From IMG/VR virus record IMGVR_UViG_2563366923_000005: a DNA stretch of 16,693 nucleotides, one strand, 5' to 3'. The notes under the pieces are model-generated. The model was not told the origin of the DNA and searched no databases. It saw only the letters and a program-made list of their open reading frames with translations. A program made the position numbers and the translations under genes. How positions within the stretch are numbered: position 1 is the first letter of the stretch; the number at the start of each line of letters is the position of its first letter. Shown piece by piece: positions 1 through 16,693 of the stretch. Origin of the DNA: a virus. Its lineage: Duplodnaviria > Heunggongvirae > Uroviricota > Caudoviricetes.

Positions 1-309
1 TTAGTACTCAGGAAGGTTTTCTAAGTTATCCTTGGATGTACCATTAGGTCTAGTAGTAATGTAATCAGTACCGTTGACACGGTCCTTAACCACTTTTTGA
101 CCTTTCTTCCACTTACCGTCATCACCTTTGAAAATGGTGTAAAAGGTATAGCCGCTATCGATTTTATTCACTACCCACTGCCGTGTTTCTGATGTCCCTT
201 CTCCAACAGTATCGCCATTATCGACATGCACATACACATGGGTAATGTGAGTGTGTTTATCGTTATATCGGACTTTAGAAATAAGGTAATCAGCCCATTT
301 ATCAGTCAT
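1..309 (-). CDS. Small hypothetical protein, DUF3892-like by recollection; probable island cargo
   Basis: Complete 102-aa ORF (ATG at 307-309, TAA at 1-3). About 35% GC in a sampled 60 nt, versus GC-rich head genes. Contains an HITHV motif. Function unknown. Confidence 0.45.
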   Translation of the reverse strand: MTDKWADYLISKVRYNDKHTHITHVYVHVDNGDTVGEGTSETRQWVVNKIDSGYTFYTIFKGDDGKWKKGQKVVKDRVNGTDYITTRPNGTSKDNLENLPEY

Positions 310-459: not shown

Positions 460-2121
460 TCAAATCCCATTAAATAAAGCCAGTCGCTCTTTGTGACTGT
501 CGCTCATATCGAAAGCAAAATCTTCGTGTTCTGCCTGGAATGTGCCGAACGCCATGAGTGCAGAAACCGCCGGGTCTATCTTGTTGGAGGATTTCTTTTT
601 GTTGGGTTTGATATTGGCGTTGGCGTCGGACTCCATCACCACGTTACCAATCGCCCAAGCCAGAACCGGATCGCCACGATGGCGCACCACCTTGCGGTTA
701 ACAAAAACCTCAAAAGATTTCGCTACCGGACTGAATTTCAGATAGGTTTGCGGGAACGGCTCCACATCGAGGCCGGCCCCCTGTAACTGGGTTCGCAAGT
801 GAGTGGCGTTCCACGTATCAAAGCCCACCAGCCGGATATTGAATGTTTCAGCATCGCGCAGGATATCGTCACGGATGCGGTCATAGTCGATACAGTCGCC
901 GGGGGTGGTTCGTATCCAGCCCGCTTTTACCCACTGGCGATAGATGGCGCGGTTTTTGTTAGCAACGTTAAGTAGCTGCGCTTCGGGCAGATAGTGCCGA
1001 GTAAGAAGCCTGATCTCGCGTTCAAACGGGAAAGCGTAACTCACGCTGGTAATATCGCTGGTTGAGGACAGGTCAAATCCGGCGTAACACTCCATCCCGA
1101 CCAGATCTTCTTCGGCATAATCGAGTGCACAGGCATCCCATGCCCCGGCACCCATCCACGGTGTAGAACCCTGACACCAGATATTGAAACGCTTGGTCAG
1201 CATCTCCACCCATTGCGACGGTATACCCCGCGCTTTTTGGATGGTGGATTCCAGCTTCGCCGCGTCAACGGACACATGCAGGTTAGGGTTGGCCTTGATC
1301 CACATTTCAGGCTGCTCAACCTCGCTTTCGTCGTCCAGCTCGTAGATCAGGACAAACAGCGAATCGTTGCTCTCTTCCCCGGCCAGAATCTGACAACAGT
1401 AGTCGTAATGCTGTTTACAGGCTGAGACAACGTTACTCCCGGCGGTCGTTATGGCGAACAAAATAGCCTCAGGACGTGCGCCCATACCCAGCTCAAGGGC
1501 GGAATAAACGCCGTTATCCGGGTGAAGGTGGTACTCATCGACAATCGCTAGGCTGGGGTTAGTCCCTTCAATGGTGGACGCTTTCGCCGCCAGCGGCTTT
1601 AGCAGGCTGTTGCTCTTCGGGAAAATGACTTTATGCGCCTGAATATTTACGCGCTTTTTCAGCGGTTTTGACAACAGGCACATCTGGCGGGCATCGTCGA
1701 ACACGATTCGGGCCTGATCCCGGCTCACCGCCGCCGTATAGATATCCTGCTGGCCCTTCTCCATTACCAGAAACCAGTTAGCCAGCATGGCGGCCACGGT
1801 GGATTTGGCATTCTTGCGCGGCACCTCAATAAAGGCGCTGCTGTACTTACGGCGGCCTGTCTCTCTGACTTTAAAGCCCAGCAGGTTAGCAAAGGCGAAC
1901 TGCTGCCACGGTTCCAGATCGATTGGCTGGCCCCGAAGCGGGCCTTTGACGTGAGGACAGAGCCGCGAGAACGCAATAAACCGCTCTACGGTCGCCGTAT
2001 CGAACTCATATCGGGGGTCATTCAGGTCTGAAAAGTACCTTTCCACGGCCTGTTTTACGCGCTTACAGGCCGGAATTTCGCCCGTTTTTATCGCATTTGC
2101 GTACTCATTCCAGACGGTCAA
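460..2121 (-). CDS. terL: Phage terminase large subunit
   Basis: 553-aa ORF with a P-loop-like segment (EVPRKNAKST) and typical length. The only possible start is TTG at 2119-2121, since an in-frame stop lies at 2143-2145 with no ATG or GTG between. It is preceded by GGAAGAGGAGGA and overlaps the terS 3' end by 17 nt. Confidence 0.9.
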   Translation of the reverse strand: MTVWNEYANAIKTGEIPACKRVKQAVERYFSDLNDPRYEFDTATVERFIAFSRLCPHVKGPLRGQPIDLEPWQQFAFANLLGFKVRETGRRKYSSAFIEVPRKNAKSTVAAMLANWFLVMEKGQQDIYTAAVSRDQARIVFDDARQMCLLSKPLKKRVNIQAHKVIFPKSNSLLKPLAAKASTIEGTNPSLAIVDEYHLHPDNGVYSALELGMGARPEAILFAITTAGSNVVSACKQHYDYCCQILAGEESNDSLFVLIYELDDESEVEQPEMWIKANPNLHVSVDAAKLESTIQKARGIPSQWVEMLTKRFNIWCQGSTPWMGAGAWDACALDYAEEDLVGMECYAGFDLSSTSDITSVSYAFPFEREIRLLTRHYLPEAQLLNVANKNRAIYRQWVKAGWIRTTPGDCIDYDRIRDDILRDAETFNIRLVGFDTWNATHLRTQLQGAGLDVEPFPQTYLKFSPVAKSFEVFVNRKVVRHRGDPVLAWAIGNVVMESDANANIKPNKKKSSNKIDPAVSALMAFGTFQAEHEDFAFDMSDSHKERLALFNGI

Positions 2122-2461
2122 GCTCGTCCTCCTCTTCCGTTTCTACCGGGTTACGGCGGCGGCTTACCGGATCAAAGCCCAGCAGCGACGACATTTTAAT
2201 CATGATTTTTTCAGCATCGGCCTTTGCACTCAGTGCAGGATTTCGGCTCTCGCCCCCCTGGCTGTTAACAATGCTGAACCCACGGCTGGCAAGGTCTTCC
2301 ACTGCTTTGCGGTACATCGAATAGTTGACGCAAAAAAGCTCAAGGTTGTTCCAGTCGGCGGGTGTCAGATCGCCACGCTCGGCCAGTTGCTTCGCTTTCG
2401 CTTTCCACTGCTGCGCGGCTAACTCATCAAGGTAAGCTGGCGGTTTTGGTGGTCTTGCCAT
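2105..2461 (-). CDS. terS: Phage terminase small subunit (P27-family-like)
   Basis: 118-aa product starting MARPPKPP (ATG at 2459-2461), with a pattern typical of P27-type small terminases (NPALSAKADAEKIM, FDPVSRRR). The ORF-track extension up to 2629 is G-rich and judged spurious. Confidence 0.8.
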   Translation of the reverse strand: MARPPKPPAYLDELAAQQWKAKAKQLAERGDLTPADWNNLELFCVNYSMYRKAVEDLASRGFSIVNSQGGESRNPALSAKADAEKIMIKMSSLLGFDPVSRRRNPVETEEEDELDRLE

Positions 2462-2736
2462 AAAAATTTCTCGTTTCCATCGCGTTTTATTTTCAAAAAA
2501 ATCACCGTGCGTAAAAATTTGAGGGGGCGGGCGGTGCCTGGCACCTTGAGGTTTGTCCTGAAAACCTCCCCCACCCCGTCCATGCGGCCTGTCAGCGGTT
2601 GCGGAAGCATTCCCGCAACTCCCGTTCACGCTCGCTCATACGCTGCACAGGCTGGCGCTCATTGCGTCTGCTTCGCCCCTGCATGAAGCCATCACGGCAG
2701 CGCATCAATGATCGGTACAGATTCACCACGTCTTTC
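2462..2736. other. Candidate cos / packaging-site region between HNH gene and terS
   Basis: 275-bp non-coding gap in the position where HK97-type genomes carry cos. It holds a GC-rich block at 2521-2578 with a perfect palindrome GGTGCC-T-GGCACC (2533-2545) and an inverted repeat GAGGTTT-N6-AAACCTC (2548-2568), flanked by a G-rich tract (2521-2534) and a C-rich tract (2565-2578). Confidence 0.35.
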
Positions 2737-3180
2737 TCATTCATTTCTGCCCTCATACATCCAGTCATTGCGATGGGCTGCACGCTCTTCCTGCTCTCGG
2801 TACAGCCCTGCCTTACGGTTCGCTTTGGTGATGGGGTCTTGCTGCGTGGTCTTCTGGTTATGATGCATCTGGCATAACGGCTGGTGATTCCACTCAGGCC
2901 AGAACAGAACATCATCACCGCCGTCGATAGGGATGATGTGATCGACAATCTTTGCAGGAACGTAGAGGCCCAACTTCTGGCACTCGACACATAGCGGCTG
3001 ACGTTTCAGATACTGAGCGCGGTACTTCTCCCATGATGCTGAGTAACCACGGGCGCGACGGTGGCCGCGTCTGGCATCTTCCGCCCGCCAGGCTTCGCGC
3101 TTGTGCTCATCGCACTTACCAGACTTCACCCGCTTATTGCATCCCGGCTCAGTGCACCGGCGCATTGGTTGCCACGGCAT
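2737..3180 (-). CDS. HNH endonuclease (terminase-associated)
   Basis: 147 aa from ATG at 3178-3180, overlapping the connector stop (ATGA). Cys clusters (CTEPGC, CDEH, CVECQ) and an HNH-like core (LCQMHHNQK). Position between connector and terS is typical of HK97-like packaging modules. Confidence 0.85.
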   Translation of the reverse strand: MPWQPMRRCTEPGCNKRVKSGKCDEHKREAWRAEDARRGHRRARGYSASWEKYRAQYLKRQPLCVECQKLGLYVPAKIVDHIIPIDGGDDVLFWPEWNHQPLCQMHHNQKTTQQDPITKANRKAGLYREQEERAAHRNDWMYEGRNE

Positions 3181-3479
3181 CAGTACACCCCCACATCGCG
3201 ATACACAGACCACAATGCAGAGATAGCAAGGGGGATCTCTTTCGCCTCCACATCACTAATCATCGTGCGGTATTCGTACAGTTGGGAAACGTACATAAGG
3301 CATCCGATCTTGATGGCAGGAGTAAATTCCAGGCCAGCACCGAACCGTTTACCGATATGCTTCTGGCAGACTTCCAGTGACGCTTCGATGTATGCCTGAA
3401 TCATTGCATCTTCATAGGAATCATCGTTATCGATGCGACAGTGAAGTTTTGCCTCATCAAGCCCAATTAGTTCACTCAC
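3180..3479 (-). CDS. gp6-like head-tail connector / DNA packaging protein
   Basis: 99 aa with GTG start at 3477-3479 preceded by GGGAGGG, and an in-frame stop directly upstream. N-terminus LDEAKLHCRIDNDDSYEDAMIQAYIEAS fits the gp6-like connector pattern. Confidence 0.75.
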   Translation of the reverse strand: MSELIGLDEAKLHCRIDNDDSYEDAMIQAYIEASLEVCQKHIGKRFGAGLEFTPAIKIGCLMYVSQLYEYRTMISDVEAKEIPLAISALWSVYRDVGVY

Positions 3480-3513
3480 GGCTTAAGCCCTCCCTTACAA
3501 AGCAACTCCAGCC

Positions 3514-4755
3514 TCATGACGCATCCTCCTTATTCTCAGAACCGGTACTGACCTTCACTTCCTGCTTCCATGCCTGGCTGTATTCGTCGCCCCCTTCACG
3601 CGGCGGCATCCCTTCGCGTTCGCGGGCTTCGTTCGGGTTCATGATCCCGTTCTTGATACCGCGCTCATAAGTTGCGTAACGTTCGGTTGGAGTGGCTCGA
3701 AGAAGATCGGCAGAGTCGAACTCCACCTGATAACGAATTCCGGGTACAGGCGATGCCACCAGCAACGCGGATTTAATCTGCTGCTCAAAGTTCGCCAGCC
3801 ACGGACGCATCGTCATGGTGAGAAATGCGCGGCTCGCCTCACTAAAGTTGCTGTAGGTGCTGTTGCTGTATTCCTGCAGGAAGATGGGGGACACGTTGAA
3901 CATGCGGGCAATGTCTTCAATGGAGAAGCGCCGGGAGGCCAGCCACTCAGCATCCTGATTGCTCATGCCAAGCTGCTTATAGTCCATGCCACCTTCAAGG
4001 ATCGGTGTTTTACCGGCATTTCTGGCACCTTTGTAGCGCTCAAGCGCGTCCAGCGCCTGTTTACCCTTCACACTATCGAGCCATTCAGCAGTAGTGACTA
4101 CGCCCGCCGCCATCATGCCATCTTTCATAATGCTGGCGCCGTGGCGCTGCTGGGCCAGACCTAACCCCAGCGCCTCACGGCAGATGGTGATCGGCGAGCG
4201 CCCCAGAAAACCATCATCGGTCGAGTAACGCAGGTGCAGAATCTCTTCCTGCAGGTAGGTGCGCACTGCCCCGGTAAACGGTTCAGTAACGGTGTATTTG
4301 TACTTATGCTGGCCGATACGCTCAGGAACAACCGCCCCCGGCGCATACGGATGCAGGGATTGCGGCTGGCCGTCACGGCCCCACTGGATCACCGCATAGG
4401 CGTTACCATTCAGCAGGCAATGACGCATCATCGTGCGCTTGAACTGGTAAGGCGTCTGACAGTCGTTCGGTTGCTCGTTAAGGAGAAAATCCACCGGGTG
4501 ATTGCTTAGCCACTCCCGCGCTTCTCGGCCGTTATCGTTGCGCACGCGGTAGAGGTAGCAGGGCATTGTTGCCACTGCCTCGCTGATAACTGATATGGCG
4601 TTCATGACCGCCGGCAGAGATTCCGCAGTACCGGCAGACACATATTCGCCTGATCCGGTATTTGGAATCCCTGCCATCGCCAGAAACTCATCAATCGTCA
4701 TGCTGCGCTGTTCGGATGGCTCAGATTTACGGCCAAAAGGCCAGATATTCCACAT
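3514..4755 (-). CDS. Phage portal protein (HK97 family)
   Basis: 413-aa ORF directly downstream of the protease gene with a 1-nt gap. Size and sequence character are typical of HK97-type portals. Confidence 0.88.
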   Translation of the reverse strand: MWNIWPFGRKSEPSEQRSMTIDEFLAMAGIPNTGSGEYVSAGTAESLPAVMNAISVISEAVATMPCYLYRVRNDNGREAREWLSNHPVDFLLNEQPNDCQTPYQFKRTMMRHCLLNGNAYAVIQWGRDGQPQSLHPYAPGAVVPERIGQHKYKYTVTEPFTGAVRTYLQEEILHLRYSTDDGFLGRSPITICREALGLGLAQQRHGASIMKDGMMAAGVVTTAEWLDSVKGKQALDALERYKGARNAGKTPILEGGMDYKQLGMSNQDAEWLASRRFSIEDIARMFNVSPIFLQEYSNSTYSNFSEASRAFLTMTMRPWLANFEQQIKSALLVASPVPGIRYQVEFDSADLLRATPTERYATYERGIKNGIMNPNEAREREGMPPREGGDEYSQAWKQEVKVSTGSENKEDAS

Positions 4756-4756
4756 A

Positions 4757-5317
4757 TCACAGCCCCGCTAAGTCAGCCCAGCGTCGGCGGTTATCACCAG
4801 CACGGCGCAGTTCAGGATGTTGGGAGAACAGAGAACGGTGCGCAATTTCCACGCCGGACTCAGGGTAAGCAGGCATAGAAGTAACGGTGATCTCCCGCAG
4901 CTCGGCAGCGGTAACAGTGCGAATATACGGTGTAGGAGTAATATCCCAGGACTCTTTCAGCGCACGGAATCCGAAGCTCATGCCGGAAATGTCTCCACGC
5001 TCCACCAGCTCCAGCACATCATTGCCAAGTTGGGTGTTTGGCGGGGTCAGCTCGAAACGCAGCCCGGTATCATCTTCGGACAACACCAGCGTGCCGGATT
5101 TGGTACGCCCCAGCAGTTGGGTATAGTTATGCTCGTACAGTGCACGCACATCGCTACCGGATGCCAGGCTGTCTTTAAACGCCCCCGGCGCAAACTGCTC
5201 GCGGAACTCATCCCAGATCACCTCTGACAGGCTGTTCCAGCGCACGGCATAGCCCACCAGCTTTTTGTTGCTGGCGCTCAGTTCGGAGGTACGGATTTCA
5301 AAATCGATTGTTTTCAT
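4757..5317 (-). CDS. Prohead maturation protease (HK97 family)
   Basis: 186 aa; the segment LVGYAVRWNSLSEVIWDEFREQFAPGAF matches the conserved N-terminal pattern of HK97 prohead proteases. GGAG lies 8 nt upstream of the ATG. Confidence 0.88.
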   Translation of the reverse strand: MKTIDFEIRTSELSASNKKLVGYAVRWNSLSEVIWDEFREQFAPGAFKDSLASGSDVRALYEHNYTQLLGRTKSGTLVLSEDDTGLRFELTPPNTQLGNDVLELVERGDISGMSFGFRALKESWDITPTPYIRTVTAAELREITVTSMPAYPESGVEIAHRSLFSQHPELRRAGDNRRRWADLAGL

Positions 5318-5368: not shown

Positions 5369-6535
5369 TCAGGAACCGGAACCGGAAAGCTCAAGCACCT
5401 TGATGGCGTTGGAGTCCACCACACCACCGCCTAGGTATTTATCGGTGTGCACCTTGTAGAAACCAGGTTCGGTGATGTTGTCGGGGCGGGTACGCACGCC
5501 AGTGGTGTGATCCACGATGAAGTAACCGCGCTTAAAGTCGCCGACTGCCAGGAACGCTTCACCCGCAGCCGCATCAGGCATGGTTTCCAGGTATTGAACC
5601 GGACGGCCAAGGAGGGTATCGGGAGAGTCAGCGACGAGACGATCACGCCAGATGTAATCCCCGTTGCCGTTTTTCAGCTTTTGCAGCGTAGCGGCAGTGT
5701 TGGAGTTCATCACCCATACGGCATTTTTGCGGTATTTGGCTTTCAGCTTATACAGCAGGTCGATAAGACCATCAGAGGAAACGGCAGCAGCCTCCATCTT
5801 CTCCAGCGTGCCGAACGGACGGGTTTTATCGCTGGTGGCCGCACGCGGATAGGACAGGAACCCTTTGGATTTTTTATCACCGTCGCCGTTCACAAAGTCG
5901 GTTTCTTCGGTAGCAGTGAAGGTGTCGGTAATTTCGGAAGACAGCCAGCCCAGAATATCAACTTCGGAGAAGTCGAGAATTTCCTGAGTGGTTTTCGGGT
6001 AGGCGTAGATCGGGTTGAGTTTGATATCAACGCGCTCCATCTTCGGTGTGCTGGTTTCGGTACGCGCTTCGCCTTCGGTGCCGCGCTTAACGGTAGTGCC
6101 GCCCACTGACACCAGCTTCTGGTATTCGTTGGTTTTGGTGGTCTTCACCGTGGCGATGGAGCGCATAACGCTGTCATCCTGCAACTGGCGCATGATCTCT
6201 TTGTCCAGCTCAGGGATAACGGTATAGCCGCCGTCAGCCTGCACTAACGTGGAGAGAGAGCGGGTATCGCCGGTCATGATGTAGTGGCGCAGCTCATCGT
6301 TGCTTACACCTTTACCTTCAACAGAAGTACCAGGCAAATTGCGCTGATCGTCGGCGACGGCCTCAAGGCGGGTAATTTCAACTTCAAGCGCATCAGCCTG
6401 GGCGCGGAGTTCGTCGAACTGCTTTCCCTCTTCATCGTTCAGGCTTCGCTTTTCGCTGTCAGCTTTTTCCAGCATGGAACGCATCTGGGTTTTGAGTGCG
6501 GTTTTCTGCTGGCGTAATTCAAGTAATTTCTTCAT
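5369..6535 (-). CDS. Major capsid protein (HK97 fold) with N-terminal delta (scaffold-like) domain
   Basis: 388 aa from ATG at 6533-6535 (MKKLLELRQQK). The N-terminal ~100 aa are coiled-coil rich, like an HK97 delta domain, followed by a capsid-like body. The track extension to 6652 is judged spurious. Confidence 0.9.
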   Translation of the reverse strand: MKKLLELRQQKTALKTQMRSMLEKADSEKRSLNDEEGKQFDELRAQADALEVEITRLEAVADDQRNLPGTSVEGKGVSNDELRHYIMTGDTRSLSTLVQADGGYTVIPELDKEIMRQLQDDSVMRSIATVKTTKTNEYQKLVSVGGTTVKRGTEGEARTETSTPKMERVDIKLNPIYAYPKTTQEILDFSEVDILGWLSSEITDTFTATEETDFVNGDGDKKSKGFLSYPRAATSDKTRPFGTLEKMEAAAVSSDGLIDLLYKLKAKYRKNAVWVMNSNTAATLQKLKNGNGDYIWRDRLVADSPDTLLGRPVQYLETMPDAAAGEAFLAVGDFKRGYFIVDHTTGVRTRPDNITEPGFYKVHTDKYLGGGVVDSNAIKVLELSGSGS

Positions 6536-6563
6536 GGAGTGGTTTCCGTAACAATTAATGTTG

Positions 6564-6656
6564 AGACGTGAAACCTGCGCTTGGAGGGATGTCCACCTGG
6601 AAAGGAAACCGTCGCAGAACGGGAAAAAACCAGGTGGACAGTGGCGGCTCACGTCT
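6564..6656. promoter_or_regulatory. Nested inverted repeats upstream of the capsid gene
   Basis: Perfect 10-bp inverted repeat GTCCACCTGG (6591-6600) / CCAGGTGGAC (6630-6639) around a 29-nt A-rich spacer, nested inside a 7-bp inverted repeat AGACGTG (6564-6570) / CACGTCT (6650-6656). It lies 27-124 nt upstream of the capsid ATG on the minus strand. Confidence 0.35.
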
Positions 6657-6797: not shown

Positions 6798-7310
6798 ATG
6801 GACTTCGATTTTGATGATATGGCATACCCGGATATTTTTTTAATTTCCGGCGAGGAGTTTAAAGGAAGCCGGAACACAGGAAAAAATCAGGTAGATATCC
6901 CGTTTACTGACGAACCGCAAATTGAATTGGGCGATATTCTGATTCAGAAGATTGGAAGCCGTGAGTTAAGCCTTAAAGTTGTCGATCTTTCAATATCAAA
7001 GAATGGAACGCTGAACGTGGGTACAACGCATCCTCACTTACTGACGTTATCCGTAGAGAATCTTTCTTCCAACGCACACAGGACAGCAAAGAGTATGAAT
7101 ACTTTTAATATTGGCTCCGTCAGTGGTGAGCAAGTTCAAATAGGTGAAAGTAATCATATGCTGGTGAATATCAGTATTACTGAACTTGTCGAGAAAGTGG
7201 CTAACTCTGGCGATCCACAGGCTAAATCAATGTTGAAACAGTTACTGGAAAATAGCACCGTTGCCAGTATCGTTGGCGCTGGCGCTTCTGCGCTATTAGG
7301 TCTGCTTTAA
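6798..7310 (+). CDS. Hypothetical protein with C-terminal hydrophobic Gly/Ala-rich tail; accessory gene on the opposite strand
   Basis: 170-aa ORF with GGGGGA 4 nt before the ATG. C-terminus TVASIVGAGASALLGLL looks like a single tail anchor or glycine-zipper segment. About 43% GC in a sampled 60 nt. Only sizeable plus-strand gene inside the island besides the RHH gene. Confidence 0.6.
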   Translation: MDFDFDDMAYPDIFLISGEEFKGSRNTGKNQVDIPFTDEPQIELGDILIQKIGSRELSLKVVDLSISKNGTLNVGTTHPHLLTLSVENLSSNAHRTAKSMNTFNIGSVSGEQVQIGESNHMLVNISITELVEKVANSGDPQAKSMLKQLLENSTVASIVGAGASALLGLL

Positions 7311-8034: not shown

Positions 8035-10170
8035 TTATTCTTCTCCATCTTCCGCAACCTGGTGAAGCACATAAACGTTGATTTGACGCCCATCAATACG
8101 CGGGGATTTCTGCTGGTATCCACGCCCGCTGGACGGCTCAGAAAGCAAGCCAGCAGCGGCAAGCACGCGGGCAAACTGCCTGGCGTTAAAGCCCTGAGCT
8201 ATCTCCTTCTCAAACGTTGCGGGGAACGTATAGAACACCAGCGGCGAATCATCATGGCTGCTTTTGCGCTTTCGATACCCGGCCAGATCGCGAATCGGCA
8301 TACTGGACGGATCATAGGGCAACGGTGCAAAGCGGCTTAAACCGTAGGCATTCAGGAACGCCTCGCACTGCTCGATGATCTGCTGGTGCTCTTTGTTACC
8401 CGTGCCGAACTCTTTCACCCAGGCGTTAAAGCTATGCTGGATAGCGTCACGGCTGGCCTGTTCACTCCATCCGGTGATTGATGCACCAGTTACCAGCGCG
8501 GCTTCGAGGATTGCAAAGCGTTCGGCCACGCGGTGTACCTGCTCACCGTAATCCGCCGGGATGAGGCCGCGCCAGCGCGTTTGCGCGTCACGCACCGCCT
8601 GTTTAGCCTCCTGCTGGTTAGCCGCCAGCCATTTAACCCACTCACGCCCCGCCGCCCCGTGGTTATCAATCCAGGCTTCTTTCAGTGCGTCAGCATGAGC
8701 CTTGCCGTTTGGCAGACCGTTAAAGGCCGTCGATTTCTCCATAGGGATGTTGAGCAAGCGCACCAGTTGGCCCGCTTTCACTTTCAGCCCACCAGCAGCC
8801 AGGAAGGTTTCAATATCCATTTCCCCGGTGCTGATCGCCACAGTGCGCCAGCGTTTAAGCTCCCGATTGCCGCCCTCTTTGGCTCCCTGCAACTTTCCGG
8901 CACCGTTAAACAGGGTGTAAGCAGACGTGGCAACATCTTTGGCACTGCTGCCCTGTCCTACCTCATCAAGCGGTAACAGGCTGTCGTTATGCGCCTCCGC
9001 TTCGTTTGCTATGCCAAGCGCAGTACCGTACCAGGTAAGCCGCAACGCATCAGGCTCACCCCACAGGCTGCTCGCAATATTGGCGGTAGTGGTCTTACCG
9101 GCGCTCGACTGCTCGAACAAATGGACGCCGAAACCATCAGCACCCACCAGGCCAATAAGCGGCGCGGATAATGCCGCTGCCACGCCCAGCATCATGGACG
9201 GATTGCCCCCGGCCAGACGGGCGACGGAATCCCGCCAGGTGGCAGCAGTACCAGCAATGGCATACCCGGAAGATGCAGCGCTGCGACCGTTAAAGAGAAT
9301 GGGCGTCTCTGGATCACCAATCACTTCACCATCAGGCATGATATATGCGCCATGATGCCAGCCAGTGGTATGGGTGATAATCCATTCCCGATCAGTGCCG
9401 CTTTGCTGCAACCAGTCGGCCAGAATCGCCCGGAAGGTGCTTTTAGTGGTCACATTCACCCCACCAGCTTTAAGTGAGCGCCAGCCGTCGCGCTCACCGA
9501 TATCAGCACAGGGGATCGCCCTGGTAATATCTTCATGGCCACGCGGCGAACGCCAGCGCAAAACAAGATAGCGCTCTGCCCCGTCACTACCGGAGCCGAC
9601 CACCTCAAGAGGCGAGCACAGCCACGTTTCGTTATTGATGATCTCGCCACTATCCTTGTCCACCTTTGGCGTGATCCAGTACAGGCCATCGCTCCGGCTC
9701 TCCACGCGGGGTTTGAGTTCATCGCCCGGTTCAGGCTTTGGCTCCCGTTTTTTTACAGGCAGGTTCACCACAATGCTTTCCCCGCGTTCGGCCTCTTCTT
9801 TGAGACGTGGAAGCCTGCCCGTCCAGTCCTCCTTCGGCTGAGGCTCAAACATGCCATTAAACAGCCTGGCCTCTTTCACATCCGCCAGCGCCAGTTTGGT
9901 TGCGATAGTGCTTATCTGCATTTCGGAAAGTTCGCCAGCGCGGATCACACGAACACTGCGACGGCCGTTATCAACAATGTTTAACCGTTCCAGTTCCGCA
10001 AGTTGCCTTTTACCCAGATAAACAGGCGGTACATCATCCCATGCCCTTTTACCTTCGCTCTCGATCCAGTGCTGCACATGTGAATAGGCATCTTCACCCG
10101 CAAAGATAATCGCCTCTGTAAATTTATCTTTCGGCAGGAATTTAATATTCGGGGCATTCTTCATCTTCAT
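8035..10170 (-). CDS. Replication initiator / primase-helicase (DUF927-type P-loop NTPase)
   Basis: 711 aa with Walker A motif FEQSSAGKTT. Size and position (last gene of the operon, next to the iterons) match satellite or PICI Rep proteins. AAGGTG RBS; start overlaps the upstream gene's stop (ATGA). Confidence 0.85.
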   Translation of the reverse strand: MKMKNAPNIKFLPKDKFTEAIIFAGEDAYSHVQHWIESEGKRAWDDVPPVYLGKRQLAELERLNIVDNGRRSVRVIRAGELSEMQISTIATKLALADVKEARLFNGMFEPQPKEDWTGRLPRLKEEAERGESIVVNLPVKKREPKPEPGDELKPRVESRSDGLYWITPKVDKDSGEIINNETWLCSPLEVVGSGSDGAERYLVLRWRSPRGHEDITRAIPCADIGERDGWRSLKAGGVNVTTKSTFRAILADWLQQSGTDREWIITHTTGWHHGAYIMPDGEVIGDPETPILFNGRSAASSGYAIAGTAATWRDSVARLAGGNPSMMLGVAAALSAPLIGLVGADGFGVHLFEQSSAGKTTTANIASSLWGEPDALRLTWYGTALGIANEAEAHNDSLLPLDEVGQGSSAKDVATSAYTLFNGAGKLQGAKEGGNRELKRWRTVAISTGEMDIETFLAAGGLKVKAGQLVRLLNIPMEKSTAFNGLPNGKAHADALKEAWIDNHGAAGREWVKWLAANQQEAKQAVRDAQTRWRGLIPADYGEQVHRVAERFAILEAALVTGASITGWSEQASRDAIQHSFNAWVKEFGTGNKEHQQIIEQCEAFLNAYGLSRFAPLPYDPSSMPIRDLAGYRKRKSSHDDSPLVFYTFPATFEKEIAQGFNARQFARVLAAAGLLSEPSSGRGYQQKSPRIDGRQINVYVLHQVAEDGEE

Positions 10171-10535: not shown

Positions 10536-10900
10536 TGTGGGATACCTCCGCTCATCTGAAATTTGCCAAGTAATGGGTGATACCAGTATGCAGAGCCATA
10601 TTTGCGCTTAGCACTGCGCAGCACCAACCGTGCCGCTTCCCTGAACTTTTCATCAGGTGCAACGAACCCGCCTGATTTCAGTTTAACCAGCATCACCCCT
10701 GTGTTTTTCGCCAGCTCCTCAGCCTTTTTGGTTGAGATACCGTATTCAGCAGCCAGTGTTGCTACTGGCGTCATACCCGGAGGGATTTCTCCGCCCTGAC
10801 TATCGGTAAGTGATTTAACCTGAGCCTCAAGGCGCAAGACCTTCTCAACCAGCAGATCAACGCGGTTAGCCAGTTCGTTAAACTTCACATTGCTGATCAT
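10532..10900 (-). CDS. Hypothetical protein, possible DNA-binding (HTH-like segment)
   Basis: 122 aa with an N-terminal coiled-coil-like region and a possible helix-turn-helix (TPVATLAAEYGISTKKAEELAK). Start ATG overlaps the upstream stop (ATGA). Confidence 0.6.
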   Translation of the reverse strand: MISNVKFNELANRVDLLVEKVLRLEAQVKSLTDSQGGEIPPGMTPVATLAAEYGISTKKAEELAKNTGVMLVKLKSGGFVAPDEKFREAARLVLRSAKRKYGSAYWYHPLLGKFQMSGGIPQ

Positions 10901-11124
10901 GGTCTTGCCTCCTGAGTTTCAGGGTCTGAAAAAGTAGAAATATCCAGTGAGTTTGCCAGTTCGTCAGAAAGGCGCTGAGCCAGGTGCGTTAAACTCATAA
11001 CATGGATACGCTCCGCCTCCCCCTTGATAGTTGAAAGGTAAGCAGCACATGACATGAGCGCAGCAACCTCTTGCGCCAGCAACAGCAAATCTTTTTTGCT
11101 GCGGTAGGTGTAAAAGTTATCCAT
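10897..11124 (-). CDS. Hypothetical small protein
   Basis: 75 aa from ATG at 11122-11124 (MDNFYTYRSKK). The track extension to 11184 overlaps the upstream gene and is judged less likely. Confidence 0.5.
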   Translation of the reverse strand: MDNFYTYRSKKDLLLLAQEVAALMSCAAYLSTIKGEAERIHVMSLTHLAQRLSDELANSLDISTFSDPETQEARP

Positions 11125-11314
11125 TGAGCGCCCCCTTTTTATCCTGCTCCAGCATAAAGGTGGCAATATCGCCAGAAATATCACGGGCCAGATCGATGAG
11201 GTTATCCCTCTCGTGACCTGAAATTTCGCAGTCTGAAATCACCAGAAGCAACGTTGCCAACTGACAAGCGCGGGACGTGGCTTTTTCTCTGCCAAGAGTT
11301 TCAATGTCATACAT
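11117..11314 (-). CDS. Hypothetical small protein
   Basis: 65-aa ORF whose start overlaps the Icd-like gene's stop. Part of a chain of overlapping start/stop codons. Confidence 0.5.
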   Translation of the reverse strand: MYDIETLGREKATSRACQLATLLLVISDCEISGHERDNLIDLARDISGDIATFMLEQDKKGALNG

Positions 11315-11519
11315 GTCGCACCTCCAGCATCTGAAATGCGTGGAACGGCAGGCGGGCAGCGAAAATAAGAGTTACGCCGGGCATGGTGTCGCGGGCTTCC
11401 CGTTCACTGGATGCGTTGACGTAAATCACCAACGGTTTGGCGGTAGGGTAGCGCTCAGAGGCGGAGAGAAAACGCCATGTAAATTCAGGGCGAGTTTGGG
11501 TAGACTGATTGTCAGCCAT
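11307..11519 (-). CDS. Icd-like small protein (P4/P1 family, putative cell-division inhibitor homolog)
   Basis: 70 aa from ATG at 11517-11519 (MADNQSTQTRPEFTWRF...FAARLPFHAFQMLEVRHV) with GAGGT RBS. The FTW and FAARLP pattern matches Icd-like proteins of P4-like elements as I recall them. The 250-aa track ORF is a spurious upstream extension. Confidence 0.55.
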   Translation of the reverse strand: MADNQSTQTRPEFTWRFLSASERYPTAKPLVIYVNASSEREARDTMPGVTLIFAARLPFHAFQMLEVRHV

Positions 11520-11709
11520 AACTGTTACCTCACTTAACGGTTTGTGGTCAGAGGCCCGGTTAGTGTTCCTAGCACTACCGGGCTTCGCACTTGAAAGGTG
11601 TATGTCACCTTTAATATTCAAACTAGCCCAAAGTGAAATACACTTCAAGCCTTTTTCTTTTATTTTTTTTGCGTATACTGAAATACACCTAACATAAGGA
11701 GTTTCAGTA
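11520..11709. promoter_or_regulatory. Divergent promoter / operator region
   Basis: Bulged palindrome GCCCGGTTAGTG-N7-CACTACCGGGC (11554-11583); 7-bp inverted repeat AAAGGTG-N5-CACCTTT (11594-11612); direct repeat TGAAATACAC at 11634-11643 and 11679-11688, the second next to a TATACT -10-like hexamer (11674-11679); long T tract at 11651-11670. Confidence 0.45.
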
Positions 11710-11895
11710 ATGGCAACAGGTGCGAAGAATGCAAAGTCACAAATGACCACAGTTCGAATCCCCCATGATGTGATGGAAGATATCGAACTTTTTAAACATG
11801 AAGGTGAAAGTACCGCAGGGTTTCTTGTCACTGCTGCGAAAGGCGAAATCAAACGCCGCCAGCGCCAAAAGGCAAAAGAAGAGCCAAAATCCTGA
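11710..11895 (+). CDS. Small ribbon-helix-helix-like DNA-binding protein (putative island regulator)
   Basis: 61-aa ORF with AAGGAG 9 nt upstream. TTVRIPHDVMEDIELFKHEGESTAGFLVTAAKGEI fits a beta-strand plus two helices (RHH/Arc-like), followed by a basic tail. Divergent from the replication operon. Confidence 0.55.
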   Translation: MATGAKNAKSQMTTVRIPHDVMEDIELFKHEGESTAGFLVTAAKGEIKRRQRQKAKEEPKS

Positions 11896-14308: not shown

Positions 14309-15535
14309 TTAATCTCTATTCGCTACAGTTAACAGAACCACATTTTGATGATTACCCGCAAGAAGTTCTAAGCGATCATACCACTTATTCAGCGCGTCCA
14401 GTTTTTCCGGCAGATACAGACTACGGTTATAAATCGCCATAACCCCTGGCATTGAGTGGCCCAGCAACTGTTCAACAACGTGCGGAGCTATACCCATATT
14501 ATTCATATGCGTTGCAAGCGTTCGCCGTAGATCATGCAATGTCCACGGTTCAGAATGCCCCAGTTTTTTATAAACACTACGGCCCCACTGGCTAACCGCT
14601 TCGCTATTCTTCACAACCCCAAGAAGGTAGCCGGATGATTTTGTTTCATCGTGGAGCATTTCAATAAATGAACGCATCGCCTCTGGAACTGGACGCACAA
14701 TCTTTTCACCGCCTTTACTATGCGCTTTTGGTACTGTCCACACCCACGCCTCCATATCCCATTCGGCCCACTCTGACAATCTGGCCTCCTGGGTGCGGCA
14801 ACCAAACAAAGTGGTGATCCTGAGTAAGTTTGTGTAGTAAGGCAGAAAAACATCGCCGGACGATATAGCAGCCCACAATCCCCCAACCTCTTTATCTTTC
14901 AATACCCGATCTTTTTTCGCCTGCTTTTTACCAACATCGGGAATACTCAAATCTTCAAGGGCGGTACTGACGGCGTAACGGCGAACGCGGCAGAATTTCA
15001 GAGCCTGCTTACACATCTGGAATACATAACCCGCAGCAACTGGCGTTTTCTTTTTCATTCTGTCGAAGCAGTCAAGCCAGTATCGGGTTTCGCAGTCAGC
15101 GAGCGCCATTTTCCCAATGTAAGGGTAAATATGTTTGCGTAGCTCCGCTTTGTGCCGCTCAACGTTCGCACGATTTTCTTCCGCATATTCGCGTATCCAG
15201 TATTCGATAGCTTCCTGCACCGTGACCGGTTTAAGCGTTTCCTGAGTAGTTAGCGCCAATTGGTGCTTTGGGTCTTTACCAGAGGCCAACCACTGACGAC
15301 ATTTATCACGCGAGGAACGGGCCTCTTTGAGACTCATATCAGGGTAGCGCCCCAGAGTCAGCCGATGCAGCTTCTGCCCGTCGAGTCGGTAAGTAAACAC
15401 CCAGCTAATGCCACCAGCTTTCGTTACCTTAGCACTCAACCCGGCACCATCAGCATAAAACTCAATCTTACTGGCCGGGATGCCATGTAATCCCTTTAAC
15501 TTCCTGTCGCTCAGTTTGTTAAGTTCGCCAGCCAT
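14309..15535 (-). CDS. int: Tyrosine site-specific integrase (P4-type)
   Basis: 408 aa; C-terminal catalytic region with WTLHDLRRTLATHM, LLGHS and AIYNRS (R, H-x-x-R, Y). Lies at the element terminus next to the chromosomal junction. Confidence 0.9.
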   Translation of the reverse strand: MAGELNKLSDRKLKGLHGIPASKIEFYADGAGLSAKVTKAGGISWVFTYRLDGQKLHRLTLGRYPDMSLKEARSSRDKCRQWLASGKDPKHQLALTTQETLKPVTVQEAIEYWIREYAEENRANVERHKAELRKHIYPYIGKMALADCETRYWLDCFDRMKKKTPVAAGYVFQMCKQALKFCRVRRYAVSTALEDLSIPDVGKKQAKKDRVLKDKEVGGLWAAISSGDVFLPYYTNLLRITTLFGCRTQEARLSEWAEWDMEAWVWTVPKAHSKGGEKIVRPVPEAMRSFIEMLHDETKSSGYLLGVVKNSEAVSQWGRSVYKKLGHSEPWTLHDLRRTLATHMNNMGIAPHVVEQLLGHSMPGVMAIYNRSLYLPEKLDALNKWYDRLELLAGNHQNVVLLTVANRD

Positions 15536-15578: not shown

Positions 15579-15708
15579 GAATTGCTTGCATAATAGCATA
15601 AACAACAAAAAGCACTGGAACAATATACAGTCACAATTTCATATAACCAATTGATTTTAAATAAAATATAAAAACCACCCCAAAGCATGAAAACAGCTAA
15701 TCTGACAG

Positions 15709-15723: not shown

Positions 15724-15750
15724 TTCAGGTTAGCTAAATGCTTGATTAAA

Positions 15751-15786: not shown

Positions 15787-15808
15787 AGGTGTCACAAAGG
15801 GAGTGACC

Positions 15809-16693
15809 ATGAGAACAGGATGTGAACCGACCCGGTTTGGTAATGAAGCTAAGACCATTATTCACGGTGATGCCCTTGCCGAACTTAAAAAGCTACCTAC
15901 TGAAAGCGTCGATCTGATCTTTGCCGACCCACCGTATAACATCGGTAAAAATTTTGATGGTCTGATCGAAGCCTGGAAAGAAGATCTGTTTATCGACTGG
16001 CTGTTTGAAGTGATTGCAGAGTGCCACCGCGTTCTGAAAAAGCAGGGCAGCATGTACATTATGAACAGTACGGAAAACATGCCCTTTATCGATCTCCAGT
16101 GCCGCAAGCTTTTTACCATCAAAAGTCGCATCGTCTGGTCATATGACAGTTCTGGAGTACAGGCGAAAAAACACTACGGCTCCATGTACGAACCCATCCT
16201 GATGATGGTGAAAGACGCAAAGAACTACACATTCAACGGTGATGCTATTCTGGTAGAAGCCAAAACCGGATCGCAGCGCGCGTTGATCGATTATCGCAAA
16301 AATCCTCCACAGCCATACAATCATCAAAAAGTACCGGGTAACGTCTGGGATTTTCCGCGCGTGCGTTATTTAATGGATGAATATGAGAACCACCCGACGC
16401 AAAAACCGGAAGCCTTACTGAAACGCATTATTCTCGCCTCTTCCAACCCAGGCGATATCGTTCTCGACCCGTTTGCCGGTAGCTTTACTACCGGTGCCGT
16501 AGCCATCGCCAGCGGACGAAAATTCATTGGTATTGAGATCAACAGCGAGTACATCAAAATGGGGCTTCGACGGCTGGATGTCGCGTCGCATTACTCCGCG
16601 GAAGAACTGGCGAAAGTGAAAAAAAGAAAGACGGGCAACCGGTCAAAACGATGCCGGGTTAGCGAAGTTGACCCCGATCTCATTGCAAAGTAA
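15809..16693 (+). CDS. yhdJ: N6-adenine DNA methyltransferase YhdJ (chromosomal flank)
   Basis: 294 aa from ATG at 15809 with AAAGGGAG RBS. DPPY catalytic motif (FADPPYN) and AdoMet-binding LDPFAGSFTTG. Near-identical to E. coli YhdJ as I recall it. The track's GTG at 15803 is less likely. Confidence 0.8.
   Translation: MRTGCEPTRFGNEAKTIIHGDALAELKKLPTESVDLIFADPPYNIGKNFDGLIEAWKEDLFIDWLFEVIAECHRVLKKQGSMYIMNSTENMPFIDLQCRKLFTIKSRIVWSYDSSGVQAKKHYGSMYEPILMMVKDAKNYTFNGDAILVEAKTGSQRALIDYRKNPPQPYNHQKVPGNVWDFPRVRYLMDEYENHPTQKPEALLKRIILASSNPGDIVLDPFAGSFTTGAVAIASGRKFIGIEINSEYIKMGLRRLDVASHYSAEELAKVKKRKTGNRSKRCRVSEVDPDLIAK

Follow-up and report, generated by a model that had tools for sequence, protein, structure and literature searches.

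Gene content and setting of the island

The window, by which we mean the whole stretch of DNA analysed (16,693 nt), is an E. coli cf-PICI (capsid-forming PICI) inserted between fis and yhdJ. An island of ~16 kb with fis on one side and yhdJ on the other is found in E. coli KCJ3K291, and positions 2300-2900 (601 bases, including the gap discussed below) are 100% identical to two E. coli chromosomes. The main island genes are all encoded on the minus strand, where capsid is followed by protease, portal, connector, HNH, a 50-aa ORF, a gap, terS (P27 family), and terL. The principal genes are as follows.

1-309, minus strand, DUF3892 protein
460-2121, minus strand, terL, HK97-like large terminase (Pfam TerL_ATPase and TerL_nuclease; phrog_9, E=8e-177)
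2105-2461, minus strand, terS, small terminase of the P27 family (PF05119; Pfam Terminase_4, E=3e-25; phrog_83)
2737-3180, minus strand, HNH endonuclease (Pfam HNH; phrog_144, E=8e-43)
3180-3479, minus strand, head-tail connector
3514-4755, minus strand, portal
4757-5317, minus strand, prohead protease
5369-6652, minus strand, major capsid protein
8035-10170, minus strand, DUF927 replication protein
AntA/KilAC antirepressor, minus strand, after the integrase in transcription order
14309-15535, minus strand, tyrosine integrase

This arrangement agrees with the order published for the cf-PICIs of Proteobacteria, “capsid-protease-portal-head connectors” followed by “hnh-terS-terL” (bioRxiv 10.1101/2022.09.08.507074). 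The element is an island within the 10- to 18-kb range of cf-PICIs, with integrase, regulation, and replication modules, and the cf-PICI gene set (capsid, protease, portal, adaptor, and connector genes, together with HNH, terS, and terL) is present, except that the head-closure/connector gene is absent. No tail or lysis genes were detected among the 20 main ORFs with Pfam, or among the first ten of them with PHROGs, and the RefSeq annotation of the near-identical KCJ3K291 island lists none either. The HNH start codon (ATG, 3180-3178) and the connector stop codon overlap, and the HNH protein shares 75% identity with that of the O157:H7 cf-PICI; the island TerS shares 81% identity with its O157 cf-PICI counterpart, 38% with the TerS of phi644-2, and 33% with that of phiP27.

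Compared with the near-identical KCJ3K291 island, the window has lost 288 nt (L126 16216-16502), nearly the whole of a “phage head closure protein” gene in the portal/connector interval, and the junction shows a 7-nt overlap (3508-3514). The head-closure gene is retained in vB_KppS-Ant (gp9) and in the O157:H7 island, and the island copy lacking it may be unable to finish capsids or to package DNA.

Several other features of the island were observed. Positions 10812-11839 are the sole island stretch without a blastn match to the KCJ3K291 island (97 to 99% identical elsewhere), and they appear to be an exchanged segment of the regulatory region. The only sizeable plus-strand ORF of the island (6798-7310, 170 aa; phrog_5789, E=3e-96) lies in the replication/capsid interval and also occurs in KCJ3K291 and in the Klebsiella phage record P12620-1. 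A plus-strand N6/N4 DNA methylase ORF (15803-16693) is the host gene yhdJ, outside the island, so the window spans from the last island gene beside fis to the host DNA past the integrase. Two perfect matches to the IHF consensus WATCAANNNNTTR, at 15644-15656 and 15735-15747 (minus strand), are located between the integrase and yhdJ and are probably part of an attachment-site arm.

Layout and conservation of the interval between HNH and terS

A preliminary description, made from the sequence of the window, had taken 2462-2736 as a single GC-rich gap between HNH and terS and as the candidate cos site of the satellite. Only 2462-2591 is intergenic, a non-coding gap of 130 nt with an overall GC content of 51%; 2592-2744 is a conserved ORF, which occupies more than half of the segment so described. 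The GC-rich block is likewise real but smaller: GC reaches ~0.65 in 2521-2591 only, whereas the terS-proximal half (2460-2519, GC 0.28) is the most AT-rich DNA of the neighbourhood. The features of the interval are listed below.

2592-2744, minus strand, basic 50-aa ORF (MNEKDVV...RECFRNR; phrog_3173, E=2e-25), annotated as a hypothetical protein in RefSeq relatives
2565-2577, minus strand, G-tract, sense strand GGGGTGGGGGAGG, conserved at 90% or more across 85 variants; the predicted cohesive end lies 31 nt downstream
2534-2564, minus strand, 31-nt spacer between the G-tract and cosN, lineage-variable at its centre (2540-2552), holding most of both inverted repeats
2548-2568, no strand, second inverted repeat GAGGTTT-N7-AAACCTC, one arm falling in conserved sequence that adjoins, and in part overlaps, the G-tract
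2533-2545, no strand, perfect palindrome GGTGCC-T-GGCACC, arm 2533-2538 conserved (within 2533-2539), other arm variable
2524-2533, minus strand, predicted cosN, a 10-nt 3' cohesive end 5'-CGCCCGCCCC-3', identical to the phiP27 “cos-site”
2511-2523, minus strand, invariant post-cut block, sense CTCAAATTTTTAC, with conservation of 98% or higher at almost all positions across 85 variants
2484-2510, minus strand, AT-rich block, sense GCACGGTGATTTTTTTGAAAATAAAAC, highly conserved, ending 22 nt before the terS start codon; predicted, by analogy, as a cosB-like TerS recognition site

The start codon of the 50-aa ORF overlaps the HNH stop codon (ATGAATGA), the two genes being translationally coupled, and the product shares 43% identity with its O157 counterpart, in which the C-terminal motif (E/D)R(E/D)RE(L/V)xECFRNR is kept. 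The ORF ends 58 nt before the predicted cohesive-end 10-mer and 68 nt before the sense-strand cut. At the corresponding position no ORF was found in phiP27, phi644-2, or Pasteurella Pmp8, and the protein could assist packaging specifically in enterobacterial cf-PICIs. A mosaic boundary was seen at ~2644: three E. coli islands (L008-L010) match the window at 86 to 95% identity from terS through the gap into the 3' end of the small ORF, whereas their HNH and the 5' remainder of that ORF are unrelated; this indicates that the cos region has been inherited with terS and not with HNH.

The gap was aligned across the window, nine E. coli relatives, 80 IMG/VR loci, 25 metagenome loci, and the O157:H7-type island, yielding 85 distinct variants. 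Conservation covers the G-tract, the 10-mer, TCAAATTTTTAC, and the T-rich block but does not extend to the spacer. On the sense strand, the conserved blocks GGGGTGGGGGAGGTTTTCAGGACAA (2577-2553) and AGGCACC (2539-2533) enclose a centre of ~13 nt (2552-2540) in which conservation falls to 0.1 to 0.6 at many positions and at least four unrelated versions occur. The 10-mer varies by transitions at two positions only, and CGCCCGCCCC has one exact copy in the window, at 2524-2533. TCAAATTTT, within 2511-2523, is common to phiP27, phi644-2, and Pmp8. Of the elements compared, the three of cf-PICI type (the window, Pmp8, and the O157 island) have the AT-rich block 2484-2510 in common; phiP27 and phi644-2 carry a different sequence there, in which these two phages are alike.

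The conspicuous symmetries reported for this interval were largely found as described. The palindrome GGTGCC-T-GGCACC lies at 2533-2545, and the flanking tracts exist, the G-rich one at 2521-2534 (GAGGGGGCGGGCGG) and the C-rich one at 2565-2578; the arms GAGGTTT and AAACCTC are present at 2548-2554 and 2562-2568, but they are separated by 7 nt (GTCCTGA) and not by six. Inverted repeats exceed chance only mildly, with three observed versus 0.27 expected for arms of at least 6 nt (P ~0.015) and one versus 0.06 for arms of at least 7 nt (P ~0.05).

Correspondence with annotated and mapped phage ends

Gene context, sequence identity or similarity to cos sites, conservation, and a break in the virion assembly of a relative together lead us to conclude that the gap (2462-2591) is very probably a cos site of the phiP27/SfV-SfI/phiE125/HK97 type, carried by a cf-PICI. 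Sites of this type are cut with the help of HNH and yield cohesive 3' ends of 10 nt. In the phiP27 record (NC_003356, 21806-21815), CGCCCGCCCC is annotated as “cos-site” in the HNH/terS interval, and its 28-nt context GGNACCGCCCGCCCCNTCAAATTTTTAC matches 2511-2538 of the window (minus strand) with 0 mismatches, with 0 matches expected and 0 found in 200 shuffles. The packaging genes of SfI are phiP27-like, and run-off sequencing of its virion DNA gave a 10-nt gap, TGCCCGCCCC (PMC3636060), which is identical to the predicted cosN at 9 of 10 positions. The published ends of phage phi644-2 are 10-base 3' extensions, 5'-CGCCCGCTTC-3', and its cos is that of phiE125 as well (PMC2920897). Its HNH gene is at the right genome end and its record runs end to end; the joined ends GGGACCGCCCGCTTC|GTCAAATTTTCACGC correspond to AGGCACCGCCCGCCCC|CTCAAATTTTTACGC in the window, with the predicted cosN in register with the overhang. 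When the 35-nt core of phi644-2 was compared with both strands of the whole window, the best match fell at the predicted cosN (27/35; next best 19; background 8.8 ± 2.6), and the local alignment scored 36, against 16.5 ± 2.6 for dinucleotide shuffles, none of which (0/1000) reached 36.

These comparisons uphold the earlier placement of the satellite cos between HNH and terS, within the GC-rich block, by homology to phiP27 and phi644-2/phiE125, but they move cosN off the palindromes, to which it had been assigned. The predicted cohesive end is the adjoining 2524-2533, which had been regarded merely as part of a flanking G tract; cosN is therefore placed there, to the exclusion of the palindromes.

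An ungapped register anchored on the 10-mer can be followed across six elements, namely the window, the O157:H7 cf-PICI, Pasteurella Pmp8, phiP27, phi644-2, and HK97. Its features are a G-tract at about -45 to -32, AC at -2 to -1, ACGC at +12 to +15 (in phiP27 ACAC, in the O157 element ATGC), and a T/A-run that starts at about +20. The G-run keeps this register in phiP27, phi644-2, HK97, Pmp8, and the O157 cf-PICI; it is a candidate termination-side or HNH/terminase docking subsite. The HK97 cos alignment taken alone was not significant (score 18 versus 17 for shuffles), and HK97 is thus used as an architectural analogy only. In HK97, the site bound by TerS spans +15 to +29 downstream of the cut, where the protein recognises a G adjoining an A/T tract, and the HNH protein gp74 of HK97 stimulates cleavage (PMC11331095; for gp74, also PMC9410871). 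The block 2484-2510 corresponds to register +14 to +40 and includes the register of the HK97 TerS minimal site (+15 to +29), which reads CACGGTGATTTTTTT in the window. A PDB sequence search with the island TerS gave no match, and HK97 TerS (gp1) has no detectable sequence homology to it, so the TerS site is assigned here by analogy only.

The packaged DNA of a relative bears on the site independently of the homology argument. For vB_KppS-Ant (LR881103), a phage lysate raised on K. pneumoniae DSM 30104 was the source of the DNA, sequencing was done with Nextera XT, and the sequence is >99% identical to a region of the K. pneumoniae DSM 30104 genome (PMC8006926); vB_KppS-Ant is presumably the cf-PICI KpCIDSM30104, for which concatemers of packaged DNA have been attributed to cohesive ends (cf-PICI preprint literature). 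LR881103 is a linear assembly of 16,548 bp; its start lies 22 nt ahead of the terS ATG and its last bases are ...GGTTTTCAGGAC. It lacks 69 nt carried by integrated copies of the same lineage (variant u41), 31 nt to one side of the predicted cut and 38 nt to the other. Such an absence is expected from tagmentation of a molecule with fixed ends, whereas a permuted genome would have been assembled across the site. The break thus gives indirect support for cos, although the assembly gap could have another cause, for example, trimming or assembly failure in a GC-rich region.

Other contig ends were also inspected. Among the 80 IMG/VR loci found with TerS, most of which are prophage predictions, none ends in the gap, and a metagenome scan with a conserved 29-mer recovered 25 contigs, none of which starts or ends at the predicted cut, which is uninformative. 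Klebsiella phage P12620-1 (PQ569648.1, 106.5 kb) carries a cf-PICI appended from 90.6 kb to its end and joined to unrelated DNA just after the terS ATG, with the gap missing; it looks like an assembly chimera, and its break at the gap was given little weight as evidence of a terminus. We also observed that vB_KppS-Ant (LR881103.1) has been described as a filamentous ssDNA prophage, yet it contains a full cf-PICI gene set.

Alternative readings, proposed packaging scheme, and known systems

That the two palindromes are themselves the functional core of the gap, as a symmetric cosN or as dyad sites for terminase or HNH dimers, is in our view very unlikely. They are real, mildly enriched, and only 1 to 35 nt from the predicted cut, and the phi644-2 spacer contains an unrelated 5-bp dyad, GGAGG-N5-CCTCC, at the same position; the variable arm of the second repeat also usually retains its GGTTT/AAACC core (at least 5 of 7 pairs in 77/85 variants, all 7 in 9/85). 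The fixed arm of that repeat, however, sits in a block conserved for other reasons, and the repeat was absent from phiP27, phi644-2, and HK97 in the register comparison; equivalent dyads are missing from phiP27, HK97, and Pmp8. The perfect palindrome has all six pairs in just 11 of the 85 variants and three or fewer in 42, although the TerS proteins are 97 to 100% identical, which argues against an essential role. In addition, the mapped cohesive ends of the relatives align with the neighbouring 10-mer and not with the palindromes, and folding of the gap is no more stable than that of shuffled sequences (z = -0.4 for RNA, -0.7 for DNA). The palindromes could instead be lineage-specific protein-binding dyads. 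Still less probable is a transcription signal, either a terminator or attenuator after the HNH-small ORF pair or a promoter or leader of terS-terL. The intergenic position inside an operon, the AT-rich DNA before terS, and a GC-rich three-way hairpin followed by AAATTTTT on the sense strand would suit such a signal, but no terminator-like or sigma-70-like sites were found at 1900-3400, the fold z-score is again that of shuffles, and Rfam gave no match to the gap at E values up to 1; moreover, the stem-forming bases are the variable ones, whereas the conserved bases match phage cos sites. The gap could have a modest regulatory role alongside cos.

Two further readings concern how, or whether, the site is used. 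Pac sites too occur in or near terS, but headful packaging from a pac site is barely conceivable here: cos packaging is the mode associated with HNH-terS(P27)-terL modules (PMC11331095, PMC9410871), the packaged-DNA concatemers of the relative KpCIDSM30104 are attributed to cohesive ends, and the gap matches an annotated cos site, that of phiP27, exactly. More plausible, though still unlikely, is that the gap is a cos by descent that is inactive in this copy, a decaying cf-PICI no longer packaging itself. The 288-nt deletion relative to KCJ3K291, which took the head-closure gene, speaks for this; on the other hand, the cos subsites, HNH, terS, and terL are all intact, 2300-2900 is identical in two other strains, and the missing head-closure protein might come from a helper phage. 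Such decay would, in any case, bear on the activity of the site and not on its identity.

On the preferred reading of the gap as a cos site, packaging may proceed in the following way. By analogy with HK97, the island TerS would bind the T/A-rich block downstream of the cut, and TerL together with HNH would nick the two strands 10 nt apart, at the predicted positions 2524|2523 (minus strand) and 2533|2534 (plus strand), leaving 5'-CGCCCGCCCC-3' as a 3' extension. Packaging would then start at the terS side, run round the replicated concatemer, and stop at the next cos, where the G-tract, three helical turns upstream, may act in termination. In this scheme the exact nick positions and the overhang polarity are inferred, as are the functions given to the T/A block and the G-tract. 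The G-tract is spaced ~31 nt from the cut in cf-PICIs, phiP27, phi644-2, HK97, and the Pasteurella element, and this spacing, like the variable spacer with its lineage-specific dyads, may be undescribed for this cos type. We also entertain, as a proposal of low probability, that the G-tract ~31 nt upstream is a shared cos subsite (HNH docking or cosQ-like) and that the spacer has diversified against cross-packaging; if so, the diversity of the spacer would keep satellites and helper phages that reside together and share a cohesive end from packaging one another.

Knowledge of the cos type goes back two decades, and the description of cf-PICIs dates from 2022 to 2023; with both already known, the new part is a predicted position at the nucleotide level. 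Papers on cf-PICIs report cohesive ends and HNH-terS-terL packaging genes of the islands' own, but no nucleotide coordinates for a cf-PICI cos were found in the literature searched on cf-PICI and cos. A related gap, ~75% identical (O157:H7-type island), occurs in 534 of 5426 complete E. coli genomes (~10%), O157:H7 strains among them, and the present assignment offers a testable, nucleotide-level packaging-site position for a widespread satellite family. It also shows conspicuous palindromes to be a poor guide to cosN in the cf-PICI cos family.

Among known systems, the cos of lambda (cosQ-cosN-cosB, with the IHF site I1) shares the modular logic of a nicking site set between the side that TerS binds and an upstream element with a possible part in termination. 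In lambda the overhangs are 5' and 12 nt long, HNH is absent, and TerS is of the gpNu1 type; a lambda-like cos was rejected for the island on account of its P27-family TerS and of the cos gap, in which no IHF consensus was found. The nearest island relatives, EcCIEDL933 and KpCIDSM30104, are of the same type and gene order with their own HNH-terS-terL, the difference being that the present copy is without the head-closure gene (Alqurainy et al. 2022 preprint; He et al. 2025 preprint). HK97 likewise has its cos flanked by HNH (gp74) and terS, with a 10-nt 3' overhang; its G-run, “GAC|CGCC,” the ACGC at +12 to +15, and GATTTTTTT fall in the island register to within 1 nt, but the overhang itself is CGCCGCCAAA, unlike that of the island. 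The Burkholderia phages phiE125, phi1026b, and phi644-2 have the same architecture and register and a P27-family TerS, with ACCGCCCGC and TCAAATTTT identical to the island, whereas in the phi644-2 group the last four bases of the overhang are CTTC in place of CCCC and the downstream block differs.

The closest likeness is to the phiP27 type of cos, which the Shigella phages SfV and SfI also have (10-mer TGCCCGCCCC in SfI). In phiP27 the cos is likewise located between HNH and a P27-family terS, the 10-mer CGCCCGCCCC and the flanks GGNAC...NTCAAATTTTTAC are identical to those of the island, and a G-tract again lies 31 nt upstream. The island differs in its extra 50-aa ORF between HNH and cos and in being a satellite without detected tail or lysis genes; the 31-nt spacers are unrelated, and the terS-proximal block is ACCCGCGAAATTAAAAATTTCAGG in phiP27 and GCACGGTGATTTTTTTGAAAATAAAAC in the island. 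A cohesive end shared with phiP27 beside a terS-proximal block that is not shared fits a specificity residing in the TerS site, and 2484-2510 is a more likely seat of packaging specificity than cosN. The suggestion that cosN gives the satellite a packaging specificity of its own thus fails on its identity to phiP27; packaging exclusivity must arise at a different subsite, probably in the T/A-rich block that adjoins terS.
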